Positions 3,761-19,899 of a DNA stretch of 64,000 nucleotides are shown here, piece after piece (positions within the stretch are counted from its first letter, which is position 1; each line of letters begins with the position of its first letter). The position numbers and the translations under genes are program-made. Source of the DNA: a virus (lineage: Duplodnaviria > Caudoviricetes). The DNA lies in IMG/VR virus record IMGVR_UViG_3300037400_003286; one strand, 5' to 3'. The notes beneath the pieces are model-generated. The model was not told where the DNA came from. It worked only from the letters and a program-made list of their open reading frames with translations, and made no database searches.

Positions 3761-3930
3761 AAAAAGGAGGCAACAAATATTGCCTCCAACAAATTCCTAT
3801 GAAAAAAGTAATTGTAAACAGCTGGATACACGAAAGATGTCGTAGCTTTAGCCAAGGATTAATCCTAGGACATGGTGCGTTTACGAGCACTCTTACATCA
3901 TCTGTTGTAAATACAACATTTGATTTGCGT
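3761..3930 (-). ncRNA. Candidate structured non-coding RNA ending in an intrinsic terminator
   Basis: Several hairpins (3852-3869, 3875-3890, 3903-3918), possible enclosing GATGT/ACATC pairing, terminator ggaggcaa...ttgcctcc followed by a T run; no credible ORF. Confidence 0.35.
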
Positions 3931-12349: not shown

Positions 12350-14320
12350 ATGGCTATAACAGATCAAATATTAGGAATGGATGGTGGAGGATATGGTAAT
12401 ATCCTTAGTTCTGTCGGAAATATCGCTGGAAGTGCTGGAAGTATAATCAAAAAGATTAAAAGCCTCAGCGGTAAAGAAATGTCAGTAGGTGCTATAAGAG
12501 ATTATAACACTAACGGATTCCTTGCACAAAATAGTCTGTTTATACCAGAGTTCTTTGCAAGAGCGTTTGACGAACCAACATATCTGTCATTCAGGGTTGA
12601 ATTTATGTTCAATGATCCAGAAATGACAATAAGAAATACAGCATACAACAACCAGGGTATCAAAAAAAATGCAATAAGAACTGCGTTTTATGGTCAGATG
12701 TATGACTATATGCCAGAGCCTTTCCTGAATGATTTCTTTACAAGGGACGGTAAAGGTGCTATGACACCAACCGATACTTCTGTTGGTATATTGTATTCAA
12801 CAGAAAATTATCTTGATTTCAACCTTGGTGATCACGGAAGAGCTATGCTTCTGCATACATTCAAACGTGCATTAAAGGATATACAGGAAAACTTCCCTTA
12901 CTATTTCAAATCACTAAGCGGTATCGATACATTAACATCAATAAATCCAGAGGAAGGTATTCGTGTAAAGGAAGGTGAAATTATACTTGAATGTATGGAA
13001 GGTCTTGATCTTAAGATAACACAACTCCTTCAACTTTATAGAAAAATCGTATGGGATGACGTTTATCAAAGATGGGCATTACCTGATATGATGAGATTCT
13101 TCGGAATGAGAATATACGTTTCAGAAATAAGACTTTTCAGTGATGTCAAAAAAGAAAACGATTCACCTGAAGCATTAGATTTCTCTGATGCTGGAATCAG
13201 AAATATGACTTATCGAGGACAGGCTGAATCTGGTGGTGGTGGATTCTTGGGATTAGTAAACAAAGGTGCAAGCATATTAGGAAATGCAACAGCCGTATCT
13301 CAGTCTTTCTTAGGTACAAAAAGCGTGATAACAAAGGCACTTAACTATACATCTGGTACTGTCAATACAGCACTCGGAGCATATAATTCAATAGCTGGTG
13401 CTCTCAACCAACTTGAATATTGCAACAACGCTATAAATGAAGTGATGCCAACATTATGCTTTGAATGTCATATGTGTGAATTTGACATTAAAGATACATT
13501 ATCACATATAGCAGACTTAAGTTCATCAAACCAGGATACATCTTCACCAAAACCAAAAATAAAGATTAAAGTCGGTCAGGTAAGAGAAAAACAGTCATAT
13601 CCACTGAATGCAACATTGAAAGCTGGAAAGAACGGTTATATGAAAACCGTCATTGATAGAATTGATGAAGATGGTCAATTAGAAGGTACTTTAATCAATA
13701 TACACGATTTTGGACCTTTATTCCAAGCCAGAGATGGTAAAGCAGCATTTATGGGCAATTTCCTTAATGATGACGTGCTCAATAAGAAATATTTCCATAA
13801 AGGAATGGGTGATAGACAGAGTGATTACCTGTATAACCTCAGCGAGAATGTCGGTCAATCAAAAGCAAACACGATAAGTGTAAGAAGATTACCAGACAAT
13901 CTTGAAAATGATATGGATAAGATGAGTTATATACCTGAAAATTCATCTCAAGGTGCAGCACAGGCTGGTTTGTTCTCTACAGTAATGAATGAAGCTGTAT
14001 CAATAGCGTCACACGCTGGAGTAGGAAGTAATATAATCGGAACAAAGAGTCTTGCTACCGATCCTCAGAAAGAACAGGTTGAAACTATGGAAGCAATCGG
14101 AGAAATGATGAATGCAGCAGTAGAAAGAATATATAACGGACCAGAAATGAAATCTATGGCAGCACAAGGTGTATCAGATTCACAGCGTGCAGCAATAGCA
14201 AATAATTCGTTTGCTGCTTTCATAGATGAACTTGAACTTTCAGCAGCAACATCAGACGATTACTACATGAAGGAATTCCTCAGAAACTATCGTGTAATCA
14301 AAAACGAAGAACAACAGTAA
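12350..14320 (+). CDS. Virion structural protein, possibly tail-tube-fold baseplate component
   Basis: Long intact ORF within the baseplate operon; the fold assignment is inference. Confidence 0.35.
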   Translation: MAITDQILGMDGGGYGNILSSVGNIAGSAGSIIKKIKSLSGKEMSVGAIRDYNTNGFLAQNSLFIPEFFARAFDEPTYLSFRVEFMFNDPEMTIRNTAYNNQGIKKNAIRTAFYGQMYDYMPEPFLNDFFTRDGKGAMTPTDTSVGILYSTENYLDFNLGDHGRAMLLHTFKRALKDIQENFPYYFKSLSGIDTLTSINPEEGIRVKEGEIILECMEGLDLKITQLLQLYRKIVWDDVYQRWALPDMMRFFGMRIYVSEIRLFSDVKKENDSPEALDFSDAGIRNMTYRGQAESGGGGFLGLVNKGASILGNATAVSQSFLGTKSVITKALNYTSGTVNTALGAYNSIAGALNQLEYCNNAINEVMPTLCFECHMCEFDIKDTLSHIADLSSSNQDTSSPKPKIKIKVGQVREKQSYPLNATLKAGKNGYMKTVIDRIDEDGQLEGTLINIHDFGPLFQARDGKAAFMGNFLNDDVLNKKYFHKGMGDRQSDYLYNLSENVGQSKANTISVRRLPDNLENDMDKMSYIPENSSQGAAQAGLFSTVMNEAVSIASHAGVGSNIIGTKSLATDPQKEQVETMEAIGEMMNAAVERIYNGPEMKSMAAQGVSDSQRAAIANNSFAAFIDELELSAATSDDYYMKEFLRNYRVIKNEEQQ

Positions 14321-15075
14321 TGGATTTAAGTAAGGATTTTTTAGGAAGGGTAGCATTCAATGAGGATCCTACATTCTCTGGAAGATGTAAAATCCAGGTA
14401 TTCGGACTATTCGATACATTTGAGATAGAGAACATTCCCTGGTTTACACCTCAATATTCAACTGTGTTCAGTAGCGGAAACGGGTTCGGAAACCTTTCCG
14501 TACCAAAGGTAGGAACAATAGTTAGAGTAAGATTCCCGTTTGGAAACATATACTCTGGAGAATACAGCAATATACAGAATATCGATCCAGCACTTATCGA
14601 GGAAATAAAGGATGACTACCAGAATACACATGTGATGCTTTATGATTCAGAAAAGGATCTTATTGTCATATACCAGCCTATGACTGGATATAAAATGTGG
14701 CTTGGTGGATCGATGATTCTAATAGATGCAAACGGATCTATCCAACTTAAGCACAAGAATAACAGCAACGTTATTGAAGTAAATAACAATAACATCAACA
14801 TAGCAACTACTGGAGAAGGTGGAAGTAATGCTAATGGTGAAATCAATATCGCTGCTGGTGCTACTGTAAACATCAACGTTCCTACTGCAAATGTTAATGC
14901 AAGCAGTATCATGCTTGGTGAGAATGCTTCGGCGACTGCGGTAAAAGGAGAAAAGCTTATAAATGTACTACAACAGATAGTAACGGAGCTTAATACAAAA
15001 TATCCAGTAGGTGTTTCAACCCTGGCTGGAAGAGACTTTAAAGAGATACTTTCGGATACAGTTAAATTAAATTAA
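14320..15075 (+). CDS. gp5-like baseplate spike (OB-fold plus beta-helix, no lysozyme domain)
   Basis: DPTFSGRCKIQVFG...IPW...SVPKVGTIVRVRF, followed by beta-helical repeats. Confidence 0.75.
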   Translation: MDLSKDFLGRVAFNEDPTFSGRCKIQVFGLFDTFEIENIPWFTPQYSTVFSSGNGFGNLSVPKVGTIVRVRFPFGNIYSGEYSNIQNIDPALIEEIKDDYQNTHVMLYDSEKDLIVIYQPMTGYKMWLGGSMILIDANGSIQLKHKNNSNVIEVNNNNINIATTGEGGSNANGEINIAAGATVNINVPTANVNASSIMLGENASATAVKGEKLINVLQQIVTELNTKYPVGVSTLAGRDFKEILSDTVKLN

Positions 15076-15449: not shown

Positions 15450-16196
15450 ATGAATACTTTTTTAAATTTCCTCAAGAATATTTTTGTTTGGATCTTCAAA
15501 GACTGGAGAAATGTTGTTAGTATTGCTTCTCTTATTGCTGTGATCATATTGGCTTGCAAATATAGAAGTCTTAAGAGTGATTACAATGATATTCAGAACA
15601 GTGCTCAGGATACATTGACTGTATATAAGAATAAAGTCGGTGAACTGTATGCACAGCAGAAAACATACATTGTTGAAATCAAGGATCTGAAGAAGCATAA
15701 CCAGGAACTTTACGATGAAGTTAAGAATCTGAAAGATCATCCTATCGTCGTTACTAAGATAAAGACTGTGACGGAATACAAGGATAAGATAGTAAAGGAT
15801 ACCGTTACAATAGATCCATCTGGTAACTATACCTTCAATATGAATTACAATGATCCTTGGCTTAACCTGTCTGGAAAGTCTACATTAAACATAGAGACAA
15901 TGATAGGAACTGCAAAATTCGACTCCATATCATTCCCGAATACAATTACTGTAGATCTTATAGAAAAGAATAACCAGCTTTCATTCATCGCAAAGTCGGA
16001 TAATCCATATTGTCAGATAAATAGTTTAAACGGATCGATCCTGTCACCAGAGACATCATCCGTTCTGAAGAAGAGATTCGACAAGAAATGGGCTGTTGTC
16101 GTTGGAGTAGGCCCTACGTTGTCCGTATATGATAACAAGATTGTAATTCTTCCAGGACTACAGGTGACGATTGGTCGTAAATTATTTGCATTCTAA
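15450..16196 (+). CDS. Membrane-anchored coiled-coil protein, spanin-like candidate
   Basis: N-terminal TM segment with possible lipobox ILAC, coiled coil, C-terminal beta-hairpin ending in Phe; late promoter at 15398. Confidence 0.45.
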   Translation: MNTFLNFLKNIFVWIFKDWRNVVSIASLIAVIILACKYRSLKSDYNDIQNSAQDTLTVYKNKVGELYAQQKTYIVEIKDLKKHNQELYDEVKNLKDHPIVVTKIKTVTEYKDKIVKDTVTIDPSGNYTFNMNYNDPWLNLSGKSTLNIETMIGTAKFDSISFPNTITVDLIEKNNQLSFIAKSDNPYCQINSLNGSILSPETSSVLKKRFDKKWAVVVGVGPTLSVYDNKIVILPGLQVTIGRKLFAF

Positions 16197-18140
16197 ATGG
16201 CACTGAAGAGTAGATTTTTACAGATTAGTGATATTATGATGTTTGAGTACGTCATGCATGAGGGACCTAACAATGCAGACGAGTCAAACCCAACGTCTTT
16301 CATATATACAAAGCTGAAGGATAACCATACCCTTCTGCTTTCACCTATTTCATATGAGTGTGTCAAGACATCGGACGGAGAAAAGGATAAGTATAAAATA
16401 CTGAAGGATCCGCTGACTATCAATACACTCAACCATACGGTTATACCTACTGATGAAAAGGATTCCATGTTCTTCCACTTCCTTGATCCAGATTACAAGT
16501 ATGTGGATGAGTCGATTATGGATGAACTCTACTATAATCAGATTAAGCCAAGGATGTACAATAAGCACATGGTTAATCCTATCGAACCGAATGGATATCC
16601 TCTCAGTGACTATTATTCTGATATTACCGATGTCAGATGGGATTCTGCTAGATTGTATTTCGTTAACGGATATGATTTCAGCAATGTGTATGGTATATAC
16701 ATGAGAATATCTGTGAATGGTAACGATATAAAGGACAGTAAGGGAAATATCGTGGAGAGTGACAGAGTGATCGATCTTTGCGACATATTCATAAACAAGT
16801 CTAATTTCTATAAGCTGTGCAAGTATTCAGTTAATCCGACAATGTTCGGAAACAACATATACGACAGATATATTGAAGTCAATGTTGCATGCGTATGGGA
16901 TCTTATTCAGAACAGATATAACCATGAACATTATGACACTGAACTGTTTGAGATCCTTAACATCAAGGATGATACTCAAGTAAGGTTAAGCTTCGCATAT
17001 ATCATGGATGAGGATATGTCAACACGTATTCTCGATCTTAATGAATATACTGATGCTGATAAGGAGAAGTTCCCTACAATAGATACGGATCAGGTTGTTC
17101 TTGAATTCACTAGATCATCTGTACTTAACGGTACTATACCAAGAGTTGATCTTAATTCGGATAATCTCGGTGCTTATATAGCCGAATGTCAGGATATGCC
17201 TTATCTTATATTTTATGCTACATGGAGGGATAAGCCTCTGACTGCACATACGGTATGGTCGTTCAATAAAGGTATAAGGCTGTATGACAGATCACTTATC
17301 AGGGATGACTATGAAGAAGAAGTAAGTGATGATTATGAACCAGAATATGATATGAAGAAATGGCTTGTCATCCATGAAATAAAGTGTTCATTCTGTATGG
17401 GTGATCATGTAGTCAAGGAAGAGACATATTCAATGACTCAGATTTTCGTGAACGAGACAGATGCTGACAAGTTCTACTACAGACCTATCATATTTGATGA
17501 GGCTGTTGGATTGTATATAGACAATGTTCAGATTGTATATACGATGAGACTTGTTAACTCACATGACAAGATTCAGTTCGTGAAGGTTTCAACTTTGTCT
17601 CTTTATGGCAATATGTCAAAATACTATGTCAAGGGTACAAGCCTTAAGACTGCTGATTTGACACCATATAAGATTTACAATAAGATCATAGAACAGAAGC
17701 ATGAAAATGTACCAAGTGTAAACAATGTACAGAAGACAAAGTATGTAAAGGTATTCTATAATTCAACAGAAGTTGTGCTTGATGATCAGGGTAATGTCGT
17801 AAACGGTGAGTATAACTACACACTTACTGTAAGCCAGGCTCCTAAATCATACAAGTTTGTGTTCAAGACACTCGGTGCTAACGGCACGTATTCATATATG
17901 GATATGTCAAACGGATATTACAAACTTATGTTCAAGGATGAAGGAAAAGAAACTAATTTGATCGATCCTACATTCTCAACAAACATGAATCTGTATATCG
18001 GTGAGCTTGAATTCAATTTCAATATGACTATGCTTAACAAGATGGCTGCTGTACCAGAGGAAGACAGAAAGATGTCTATCGTTGCATACAACGAGGATGG
18101 TTCAGTAAGTTCTATGTTTGATTTCATGTATGTTATTTAA
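16197..18140 (+). CDS. Hypothetical late (probably structural) protein
   Basis: 647 aa intact ORF directly following the upstream late gene. Confidence 0.5.
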   Translation: MALKSRFLQISDIMMFEYVMHEGPNNADESNPTSFIYTKLKDNHTLLLSPISYECVKTSDGEKDKYKILKDPLTINTLNHTVIPTDEKDSMFFHFLDPDYKYVDESIMDELYYNQIKPRMYNKHMVNPIEPNGYPLSDYYSDITDVRWDSARLYFVNGYDFSNVYGIYMRISVNGNDIKDSKGNIVESDRVIDLCDIFINKSNFYKLCKYSVNPTMFGNNIYDRYIEVNVACVWDLIQNRYNHEHYDTELFEILNIKDDTQVRLSFAYIMDEDMSTRILDLNEYTDADKEKFPTIDTDQVVLEFTRSSVLNGTIPRVDLNSDNLGAYIAECQDMPYLIFYATWRDKPLTAHTVWSFNKGIRLYDRSLIRDDYEEEVSDDYEPEYDMKKWLVIHEIKCSFCMGDHVVKEETYSMTQIFVNETDADKFYYRPIIFDEAVGLYIDNVQIVYTMRLVNSHDKIQFVKVSTLSLYGNMSKYYVKGTSLKTADLTPYKIYNKIIEQKHENVPSVNNVQKTKYVKVFYNSTEVVLDDQGNVVNGEYNYTLTVSQAPKSYKFVFKTLGANGTYSYMDMSNGYYKLMFKDEGKETNLIDPTFSTNMNLYIGELEFNFNMTMLNKMAAVPEEDRKMSIVAYNEDGSVSSMFDFMYVI

Positions 18141-18174
18141 TCATTTTAATCAATTTAACGTATAATAATATAAA
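18138..18174 (+). promoter_or_regulatory. Class II promoter
   Basis: TAATCATT at 18138 and CGTATAATAATATAAA at 18159. Confidence 0.75.
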
Positions 18175-18197
18175 GACAAATTATATCTTATAAACAA

Positions 18198-19223
18198 ATG
18201 AAGAAGAAAACTGAAGAGGATTTAATGAGTGCATATGTTGCACAAGAGGAAACTCCTGTGACACAGAGTCCTTTTAAGGAAGCAAAGGTCGAGGTTGTAC
18301 AGCAGCCAGATGAGCCGCAAGTACCTCAGAAGACTATGGCTGAAATTGCTAGGGAAAACAGAACTCACGGTAAGGAAGGAATGCCTTTTACTGGAAACGG
18401 TTCTGGATTGAAATACAGAGACAACATCGGTTGGCTCAAGATTGACGTTAAGACACTTCCTACACAGGGACTTTTCTATCCAGACGGAATGGAAATCAGT
18501 ATCCGTGCTGCAAGAGGTGAGGAAATCAAGCACTGGTCAACAATGAACGATCAGGATATTAACCAGCTTTCAAGGGTTGATGATATTCTTAACTATATGA
18601 TCGAGAAATGCTGCAACGTCAAGAATCCTAACTATCCTGGAAACTGTTGGAAGGATTTGAAGAATGTTGACAGATTCTATATTCTTCTTGCAATCAAGGA
18701 GTTTACTTTCATCGATGGTGAGAATGAACTTATGGTTCCTATTTCTGAGGATAAGCAGATTCCTGTCGTAAAGGAAATGATTGACTTCATCAAGATTCCT
18801 GAAGAGATCATGAAGTTCTACAATCCAGATGAGAAATGCTTCATTTTCAATATCGCTGGTAATCCTATGAAGATTCATGTTCCTTCTCTCGGTGTAAACG
18901 ACTGGCTGAAGAAATATGTAGCACAGAAGATCAATGCTAAGGAAGGATATGATGAGGACTTCATCACATATGCTCCTATGCTTATCAAAGACTATCGTGG
19001 ATTAGGACAGAGAGCATACGAGGAAATGGTCGGTGCTTCACGTCTTTGGAATGTGAAGGAATGGTCTGTACTCGCTTATGTAACGGAAAAACTTGGTGGC
19101 GCAACTGAGCCTAAGATTAAATATACTAACGAGGATGGTGGGGAAGTGGAAATCCCCTTAACCTTTCGCGGAGGTATCCGCTCTCTTTTCGTGCTTTCAA
19201 ATCCGCTACTCTCAATATGTTGA
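18198..19223 (+). CDS. gp26-like baseplate hub/tail assembly chaperone
   Basis: LPTQGLFYP...ISIRAA..EE and L.NVDRFYILLAIK motifs typical of gp26-like chaperones. Confidence 0.65.
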   Translation: MKKKTEEDLMSAYVAQEETPVTQSPFKEAKVEVVQQPDEPQVPQKTMAEIARENRTHGKEGMPFTGNGSGLKYRDNIGWLKIDVKTLPTQGLFYPDGMEISIRAARGEEIKHWSTMNDQDINQLSRVDDILNYMIEKCCNVKNPNYPGNCWKDLKNVDRFYILLAIKEFTFIDGENELMVPISEDKQIPVVKEMIDFIKIPEEIMKFYNPDEKCFIFNIAGNPMKIHVPSLGVNDWLKKYVAQKINAKEGYDEDFITYAPMLIKDYRGLGQRAYEEMVGASRLWNVKEWSVLAYVTEKLGGATEPKIKYTNEDGGEVEIPLTFRGGIRSLFVLSNPLLSIC

Positions 19224-19500
19224 ACTGGAACTGGTGTTCGCAATGAAGCTTAACATCAGTCCTATCGAAATGGGACAGATGTACTTCTATGACATAATGA
19301 TGCTTTATAACAGATATGAAGCATTCTTGAAAGACGAGAAGGAAGCTCAGGACAAACAACAGGCTGAATACGAGGAACAATATGGAAATCCGCAGGATCA
19401 ATATTCAAATATACAAAGCCAGATTTCACAGGCCACAGCAAAGATGGGTTCTTTAACACCAAGCTCTATAACAAGCGGATTTAATTTTCCTAAATTCTAA
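19162..19500 (+). CDS. gp51-like chaperone segment, probably reached by +1 frameshift from the upstream gene (annotated GTG start at 19234)
   Basis: The +1 frame is open from 19162; ISPIEMGQMYFYD resembles the gp51/gpT-type motif; ACC-TTT-CGC shift candidate. Confidence 0.55.
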   Translation, partial: PFAEVSALFSCFQIRYSQYVELELVFAMKLNISPIEMGQMYFYDIMMLYNRYEAFLKDEKEAQDKQQAEYEEQYGNPQDQYSNIQSQISQATAKMGSLTPSSITSGFNFPKF

Positions 19501-19504
19501 TCAC

Positions 19505-19540
19505 AAAGGATCGATCTTTTAATAAGGTTGATCCTTTATT
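19505..19540 (+). terminator. Intrinsic terminator, followed by late promoter GATAAATA at 19541
   Basis: aaaggatcgatctt-ttaat-aaggttgatccttt. Confidence 0.65.
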
Positions 19541-19575
19541 GATAAATAGAAGGAACAAAACGTTTTTCATATAAG

Positions 19576-19899
19576 ATGGAGAAATTGAAAAAATACTGGA
19601 AAGAAATTGTAATAGTGATCCTTGCTATACTTTTCGTATCGAATTGTACAGGAAAGGGTAACTATAAGAGAAAATATGAGAAGCAGATGCAACAGACAGA
19701 ATATGTAAAGGATTCCCTTACACATGTGTTCAGTAATGCTTCACAACACATCGACAGCCTCAACAGTGAGATAAAGATGCTTAATAAGGAAATCGCATCA
19801 TTGAACAATGAGATTTCCATATATAAGGAACAGAACAATAAACTGGCAAACAAGCCTGTAATTGTTCGTGTAAACAATAATAACGGAGAAAAGAAATAA
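19576..19899 (+). CDS. Membrane-anchored or lipoprotein coiled-coil protein (spanin-like candidate)
   Basis: Basic N-terminus, hydrophobic stretch, then FVSNC and a heptad coiled coil. Confidence 0.45.
   Translation: MEKLKKYWKEIVIVILAILFVSNCTGKGNYKRKYEKQMQQTEYVKDSLTHVFSNASQHIDSLNSEIKMLNKEIASLNNEISIYKEQNNKLANKPVIVRVNNNNGEKK

Follow-up and report, generated by a model that had tools for sequence, protein, structure and literature searches.

The stretch analyzed here (the window) is 64,000 nucleotides (nt) of DNA from a giant gut phage, a virus of the Caudoviricetes, IMG/VR record IMGVR_UViG_3300037400_003286. In it the gene at 18198-19223, which encodes a baseplate-hub-type protein of 341 amino acids (aa), is overlapped at its 3' end by a small open reading frame (ORF) in its +1 frame, and this arrangement raises the question of whether the two are neighboring genes or parts of a single one. 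The first-pass annotation had proposed that a programmed +1 ribosomal frameshift at ACC-TTT-CGC fuses the two ORFs into a protein of ~430 aa, and the conservation of both TTT_C and the +1 frame among related phages supports that proposal. We consider it highly probable that the gene and the small ORF are one recoded gene, from which a +1 shift at TTT_C generates two proteins of 341 and 433 aa with the same N-terminus. At the level of sequence, the comparison of related loci demonstrates dual coding, an invariant TTT_C and the lack of a usable start codon for the second part.

As had been noticed at first pass, the +1 frame of the window is open from 19162 (its translation begins PFAEVSALFSCFQIRYSQYVELELVFAMKLNISP...), overlapping the end of the upstream gene, and it continues to the TAA at 19498-19500. 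When synonymous codons were resampled with the protein held fixed, this frame was still open in 81% of the trials; openness in the window alone is thus expected by chance, and its significance rests entirely on the comparison with related loci. Such loci were collected via the upstream protein (53 metagenome and 7 IMG/VR loci, plus Lak-C1, Lak-B5 and MaF61, plus seven distant phage loci), and nine further IMG/VR loci via a homolog of the downstream ORF. In all, ~70 loci were compared, with 62 unique loci employed for the shift-site counts; tblastn and an IMG/VR scan for the loci of four database proteins with long N-terminal extensions (P0113, P0101, P0057 and P0016) returned related lineages only. 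Without exception, the ~70 loci place the downstream ORF +1 relative to the hub gene, and in every one of them its open stretch extends over no less than 53 nt ahead of the 0-frame stop and over 160-470 nt beyond it. Cultured phages that infect Sphingomonas, Tenacibaculum, Chryseobacterium and Flavobacterium have this layout too. Over 27 lineages the joint probability of +1 openness, obtained by the same resampling, is ~1e-15, a value that overstates the independence of the loci, which are phylogenetically related, but that is still far removed from chance.

The Phe located 19 codons before the 0-frame stop, a single column of the alignment, is encoded by TTT and followed by C in 60 of the 62 unique loci. 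The two exceptions, PTm1 and MA9V-2, have no Phe in this column; instead, one in-frame TTT_C is present in each of them at a distance of a few codons, still within the open +1 frame. A tree of the 62 proteins, computed with the C-terminal columns excluded and summing to 26.3 substitutions per site, gives 0 interchanges of TTT and TTC at the shift column, as against 12, 9 and 11 at three control Phe columns. The residue after TTT has changed 12 times on the same tree without ever leaving the set R, Q, P, L and H, the amino acids for which CNN codons stand; where this residue is Arg its codon is always CGN, though AGA is the common Arg codon. The codon preceding TTT, for its part, has changed 22 times. 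An invariant TTT followed exclusively by CNN codons is predicted by a requirement for UUU_C at the RNA level and is not predicted by selection at the protein level.

Coding in the +1 frame also sets in ahead of any start codon. The window is among ~28 unique loci with a stop in the +1 frame one codon ahead of TTT, and none of these loci has an ATG, GTG or TTG ahead of a conserved motif that follows six codons on. This motif, situated in the overlap, reads LFSCFQI in the window and LFSLFQI in the freshwater clade, the PAU-like phages and MaF61. The window sequence LFSCFQIRY... can be aligned ungapped with the Lak-clade LFKIPY... along 34 residues; in that clade an insertion of ~45 residues puts the motif 3' of the 0-frame stop, as ordinary non-overlapping coding sequence. 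The synonymous diversity of the 0 frame falls from 0.39-0.49 upstream to 0.20-0.26 in the overlap and, in the freshwater clade, is 0.00 over eight consecutive codons beneath the motif; in the Lak clade, whose overlap codes for nothing but a linker, it is near normal. Moreover, the 18 nt that separate the TGA from the ATG at 19243 vary 2/1/6 by +1-frame codon position, a pattern matching that of the next 150 nt (26/18/48), and these 18 nt thus evolve like coding sequence. The position of this ATG is occupied by Leu in two of the loci (L015 and L020) and by N, D, Y or K in the freshwater clade, and a further locus (L029) has no Met anywhere in its +1 ORF.

The end of the 0 frame is maintained as well. 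Its tail, F-[RQ]-G-G-I-[KR]-[SA]-[IL]-F, is kept in all clades, and the Lak clade keeps it with free synonymous change. With the 0-frame tail conserved and the +1 frame coding, both the short and the long products are under selection, and it is from the selection on this tail that we infer a shift made by only a minority of the ribosomes.

In the mechanism we propose, most ribosomes would read on to the TGA at 19221 and produce the 341-aa protein, and a fraction would shift at Phe codon 323. There, peptidyl-tRNA-Phe (anticodon GAA) on UUU (19164-19166) would re-pair in the +1 direction with UUC (19165-19167) while the rare CGC waits in the A site. Decoding would then restart at GCG (19168) and end at the TAA, giving a 433-aa protein in which the fold of the first 323 residues is shared with the short product and a 110-residue extension comes after it (residues 1-323, then AEVSALFSCFQIRY...). 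The junction peptide predicted for the shifted product is YTNEDGGEVEIPLTFAEVSALFSCFQIR, its unshifted counterpart being YTNEDGGEVEIPLTFR. Pairing of tRNA-Phe would be better in the new frame, since G:C replaces G:U at the wobble position, and re-pairing of UUU to UUC would demand precisely the C that follows TTT; of the possible events, slippage in the ribosomal P site has the best support.

Codon usage in the window is compatible with such a site. The A-site codon is CGC in the window and CGA in its close relatives, CAA or CAG in the Lak and freshwater clades, and CCC, CTC or CAC elsewhere. In the window clade a rare A-site Arg codon (CGC/CGA) would favor the shift, as it does in the influenza and amalgavirus systems considered below. 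Over the 42 ORFs of the window CGC accounts for just 12 of the 631 Arg codons (2%), and AGA for 429. The GC-richness and rare codons that the first-pass annotation had remarked on in the overlap are indeed there: GC content is 0.468 against a window mean of 0.357 (top 2.7% among 62-nt windows), codons 324 and 328 are the only two CGC codons of the gene, and codon 336 is CCG. Of the two Phe codons TTT is the less used (299, versus 553 TTC), and across the 42 ORFs in-frame TTT_C is depleted three-fold, with 14 observed and 41.9 expected. The homologous hub genes display a two-fold under-representation when the site itself is excluded (43 observed, 80.9 expected). Such a deficit would be in line with a general tendency of UUU_C to cause errors in these hosts.

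Shifting of the UUU_C type has been described for influenza A PA-X (UCC_UUU_CGU) and the plant amalgaviruses (UUU_CGN) (PMC3498833, PMC5052127); in bacteria, UUU_Ynn is prone to +1 shifting and a site of this kind has been proposed for Yersinia YopN-TyeA (PMC5009743). The phage locus resembles all of these in the predicted movement of the P-site tRNA-Phe from UUU to UUC, in the C as next base and in the transframe fusion with a new C-terminus; in the window clade it shares with PA-X and the amalgaviruses a rare CGN as the 0-frame A-site codon. It differs from them in belonging to tailed bacteriophages and to an unrelated gene family, and in having CAA, CAG or CCC in the A site in most clades. 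The UCC codon in the E site matters in PA-X, whereas the E-site codon is variable in the phage loci. Among phages, the Listeria phages PSA, A118 and A500 have +1 frameshifts in capsid and tail genes, at CCC_UGA and ACA_CCC (PMC5009743). These are likewise +1 shifts in structural genes yielding a C-terminally extended second product, but they involve tRNA-Pro on CCC aided by a stop codon or a pseudoknot, unlike the UUU_C considered here, which has neither.

No conserved stimulatory element has emerged from the sequences surrounding the site. The first-pass annotation had pointed to a GCGGA-ggta-TCCGC hairpin immediately after the slip site; the inverted repeat is certainly present, but its region is no more stably folded than shuffled sequence (z = 0.28), and the repeat is unconserved and belongs to no consensus structure across 21 loci, and we have rejected it as a stimulator. 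The alternative slip sites suggested at the same time, CTT-TTC and CTT-TCA, were dropped because the Lak clade has ATA-TTC and AAC-CTC at these positions. Recoding of TAG or TGA was likewise discarded: the stops at the junction are TAA and TGA, the ORFs of the window need no recoding, and the TAG=Q reading of the Lak phages leaves the junction unaffected. Within the extra Lak segment between the 0-frame stop and LFKIPY (L001 3793-3935), Lak-B5 has an in-frame TAG (=Q; L002 ~3860-3862) where Lak-C1 has GAA (Glu), which fits TAG=Q recoding in a late gene. Finally, a purine- and G-rich tract is found 15-30 nt 5' of the shift site (GGTGGGGAAGTGGAA in the window, 19137-19160; GAGGTC in PAU-like phages; GGCGCGGAGGCAGAA in the Lak clade). 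In this vicinity, 53 of 61 loci use GAG for the conserved Glu316, which shows no synonymous variation at all within the Lak clade or the freshwater clade, and CCG encodes Pro320 in 38 of 54. The tract could be a Shine-Dalgarno-like or other stimulator, or mere codon bias.

If the two ORFs were ordinary genes, the small one would start at the ATG at 19243 (or the GTG at 19234) and encode 85-88 aa, possibly through ribosomes that re-initiate once they have terminated at the TGA 20 nt earlier, while the open +1 frame ahead of it would be incidental; we judge this unlikely. The ATG, overlooked at first pass when the ORF was credited with only a weak GTG start, is retained in most close relatives of the window, but the substitutions described above reveal that it is unconserved, and there are lineages without any start codon; initiation at the ATG may nevertheless occur in addition to the shift. 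The records of MaF61, MA9V-2, PTm1 and PAU do annotate a separate mini-gene of 40-58 codons in this frame, yet the starts chosen by gene callers are scattered over profile positions 1 to 45, and the conserved motif, a confidently predicted helix and 18 nt evolving like codons all precede the ATG. Chance would suffice for the open +1 frame of the window (P = 0.81), but a pair of independent genes leaves unexplained both the constant +1 frame in every locus and the invariance of TTT_C. Across the homologs there is no conserved independent start, and the +1 frame upstream is conserved everywhere, the opposite of the pattern that the first-pass annotation had named as grounds for giving up the fusion. 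Less likely still is some other non-standard route into the +1 frame, be it a non-canonical start in the overlap, a -2 shift, ribosome hopping or RNA polymerase slippage. The comparison reveals +1 coding from ~19168 without a start codon, not the molecular event, which gives such routes some room. However, the window has no near-cognate start in the stretch that leads from the +1-frame stop to the motif (CCT TTC GCG GAG GTA TCC GCT), a T run of 3 bases is too short for known transcriptional slippage, the frequent turnover of the codon before TTT is unlike re-pairing at -2, and the requirement for C after TTT is the very prediction of UUU-to-UUC re-pairing. As to a sequencing indel or a recent frameshift mutation that split one gene, nothing beyond the two adjacent ORFs in different frames speaks for it. 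The same layout recurs in ~70 loci from independent samples and cultured phages, with both frames under purifying selection; the comparison thus refutes an artefact or assembly error, and a decayed gene has a negligible probability.

Several considerations do weigh against the single recoded gene. Besides the relatedness of the loci that tempers the joint probability, all of the support for the fusion comes from comparative sequence analysis. The window and its closest relatives carry the ATG at 19243, and an independently initiated 85-aa product may therefore also be made. There is no conserved stimulator, since RNAalifold found no consensus pairs in 21 loci and the E-site codon is variable, and the A-site codon of the Lak clade, CAA, is a common one. 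No in-frame fused homolog is present in the loci examined, among longer proteins or among the best 150 of the 427 profile matches (all 63-278 aa); selection on both products would fit this absence.

Coordinates of the features of the probable recoded locus in the window
Feature	Position	Strand	Basis
0-frame gene, 341-aa baseplate-hub-type protein (gp26/gp51-like fold)	18198..19223	+	ORF and translation
0-frame stop TGA	19221-19223	+	ORF call
+1-frame TAA, one codon 5' of the shift site, closing the +1 frame upstream	19159..19161	+	
Proposed shift site TTT_C, with codon 323 (Phe, TTT) in the P site	19164..19167	+	sole in-frame TTT_C of the gene; conserved in homologs
ACC-TTT-CGC	19161-19169	+	read in sequence
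0-frame A-site codon CGC, a rare Arg codon in the phage	19167..19169	+	codon counts
Predicted +1-frame transframe extension, 110 codons plus TAA (19498-19500)	19168..19500	+	reading frame, family alignment
+1-frame motif LFSCFQI within the overlap with the 0-frame gene	19183..19203	+	ungapped family alignment
0-frame C-terminal tail RGGIRSLFVLSNPLLSIC, exclusive to the short (unshifted) product	19167..19220	+	conserved F[RQ]GGI[KR][SA][IL]F
+1-frame ATG (Met26 of the extension), possible secondary start, unconserved	19243..19245	+	
+1-frame GTG	19234-19236	+	
Inverted repeat GCGGA-ggta-TCCGC, probably incidental	19168..19181	+	present in sequence; no folding or conservation signal

The upstream protein is 44% identical to its homologs in the Prevotella Lak megaphages. 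Weaker relatives occur in uncultured huge phages (LR7565xx), Flavobacterium phage MaF61 (ORF155), Chryseobacterium phages MA9V-1/2 (MA9V-2 059), Tenacibaculum phages PTm1/PTm5 (PTm1 ORF-022) and Sphingomonas phage PAU (gp93). A Pfam search with this protein gave no match, and PHROGs returned an unnamed family only. Its AlphaFold2 (AF2) model has a predicted local distance difference test score (pLDDT) of 72 with a confident core of residues 78-322, the fold ending at residue 322. Foldseek of the model against BFVD matched the PAU/PTm1 family first, followed by proteins labeled baseplate hub subunit, hub assembly protein, T4 gp51-like and Gp26 (E 1e-5 to 4e-2, template modeling (TM) score 0.35-0.5), with the hub subunit and hub assembly proteins at E 1e-5 to 1e-2; solved structures gave no match. 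With PF12322 (T4_baseplate) the window protein is unmatched and so does not reach the gathering score, and only 2 of 26 homologs match, at E = 0.028. An hhalign comparison of T4 gp26 with a profile that includes the distant members gave a probability of 31% (E = 5e-4). The first-pass label of "gp26-like" thus finds some echo in the fold and the profile, though not in PF12322 for the window protein itself; the models weakly suggest a gp26/gp51-like hub protein, a label that is reasonable but unproven.

The T4 gene 26 locus (baseplate hub), possibly of the same fold class, also makes two related polypeptides: in its record (L071 3803-4429, minus strand) gene 26 is annotated as gp26 and gp26', the latter being the C-terminal 95 aa made from an internal in-frame start. 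Unlike the phages studied here, it has that in-frame start instead of a TTT_C site and a +1 extension, gene 25 follows directly, and its sequence similarity to the hub family is marginal. By eye, the gp26 C-terminus CPECG...RGLKEFFELL resembles the 0-frame tails of distant family members (C..CG.EV...F.GGLKSLF...DELL); in the hhalign alignment, by contrast, it falls on the middle CxxC of the profile.

Neither Pfam nor PHROG has a match for the downstream ORF, and it bears no similarity to T4 gp51, gp26 or gp28. The first-pass identification of this ORF as gp51-like has accordingly been abandoned, an hhalign of the extension profile with T4 gp51 giving a probability of 0.1% and no family matching. 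AF2 predicts that the 110-residue extension contains a helical domain at residues 11-70 (pLDDT 79-94), the first helix of which (14-27) begins before Met26; a structural search found nothing better than E = 0.5. This small helical domain is followed by a charged Q/E/K-rich linker and a C-terminal peptide (F-x-x-P-K-F in the window), which in sequence looks like a docking peptide. The family alignment ends with one to three copies of a F/M-K-x-P-K-I/M/F peptide, for example GFNFPKF in the window, GGFKVPKMNIPNIPKPRF in the freshwater clade and NFNIPKI in the Lak clade. A search with the extension profile yielded 427 clusters at E <= 1e-3, with proteins called as starting at many positions of the profile, from 1 to 45. 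Two of them combine part of the extension domain with other sequence: P0087 (190 aa) has an unrelated N-terminal HD-like region (HDLSKY...HHPEYH) and P0038 (278 aa) a C-terminal tail of ~160 aa of unrelated sequence. They may represent different architectures or gene-calling run-throughs.

The obvious parallel to such a pair of products is the lambda gpG/gpGT frameshift, conserved among tail assembly chaperones (Levin 1993; Xu, Hendrix and Duda 2004, both as presented in PMC5009743). In both instances a structural-assembly gene would provide a short and a long product with a common N-terminus by a shift near its 3' end, and the arrangement is kept across very divergent phages while being routinely annotated as two genes. 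The differences are as substantial: the shift would be +1 here and is -1 in lambda, there is no slippery heptamer (X XXY YYZ) at the junction, and the fold is gp26/gp51-like and not that of a tail assembly chaperone, Foldseek having matched the upstream protein to baseplate hub proteins and not to such chaperones. Nor are the next genes downstream tape-measure genes; they encode a 107-aa coiled-coil protein and a 317-aa membrane-like one. The terms "chaperone" and "G/GT-type" in the first-pass annotation should then be read as an analogy and not as membership: the second ORF lies in the +1 frame, without a heptamer and without a match to the chaperone fold. By this same analogy the long form would tether the hub protein to another tail or baseplate component at a fixed short-to-long ratio; its helical domain, linker and C-terminal peptide could dock the hub protein to a tail component at a fixed low ratio.

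A broader generalization, which we favor with distinctly less assurance than the recoding of the window gene, is that UUU_C on its own, unaided by any conserved stimulatory RNA structure, stop codon or E-site codon, has been kept as an obligatory programmed +1 site throughout the radiation of PAU/Lak-like jumbo phages and megaphages, whose hosts range from Bacteroidota to Alphaproteobacteria and which account for no fewer than 427 protein clusters at 50% identity. It would set the short:long ratio of the baseplate hub, as the contractile-tail counterpart of lambda G/GT. In a partial search of the literature we found no description of this UUU_C frameshift of the hub gene or of its transframe protein, and the records examined annotate two genes. 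If the recoding is real, it adds a deeply conserved programmed +1 frameshift to the few known in bacteriophages, with a minimal UUU_C signal hitherto documented mainly in eukaryotic viruses and one bacterial secretion gene. It would also correct the gene-pair annotation in Lak megaphages, PAU, PTm1, MA9V, MaF61 and hundreds of metagenomic phages, where the second part is currently called as an orphan mini-ORF with arbitrary starts, and it would point to a ratio-controlled long form of the hub protein in the baseplate assembly of giant phages. As several of the relatives are in culture, the prediction is directly testable.

A neighboring gene (14320-15075) matches baseplate and gp5-type families. 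On this flank of the hub operon, 15450-16196 encodes a coiled-coil protein with weak spanin-like or DUF6549 matches; on the other side, the 107-aa coiled-coil protein (19576-19899) has a transmembrane-plus-coiled-coil pattern and precedes the 317-aa protein. The late-promoter-like sequence GATAAATA is not found within 16023-19541, so that no promoter is evident for the extension itself. Directly 3' of the stop of the +1 ORF (19506-19548) there is an inverted repeat, AAAGGATC...GATCCTTT, and GATAAATA is found after it, at 19541-19548, 28 nt before the next gene (19576). In the window as a whole GATAAATA occurs 14 times as against 7.1 expected, mostly just 5' of ORF starts.

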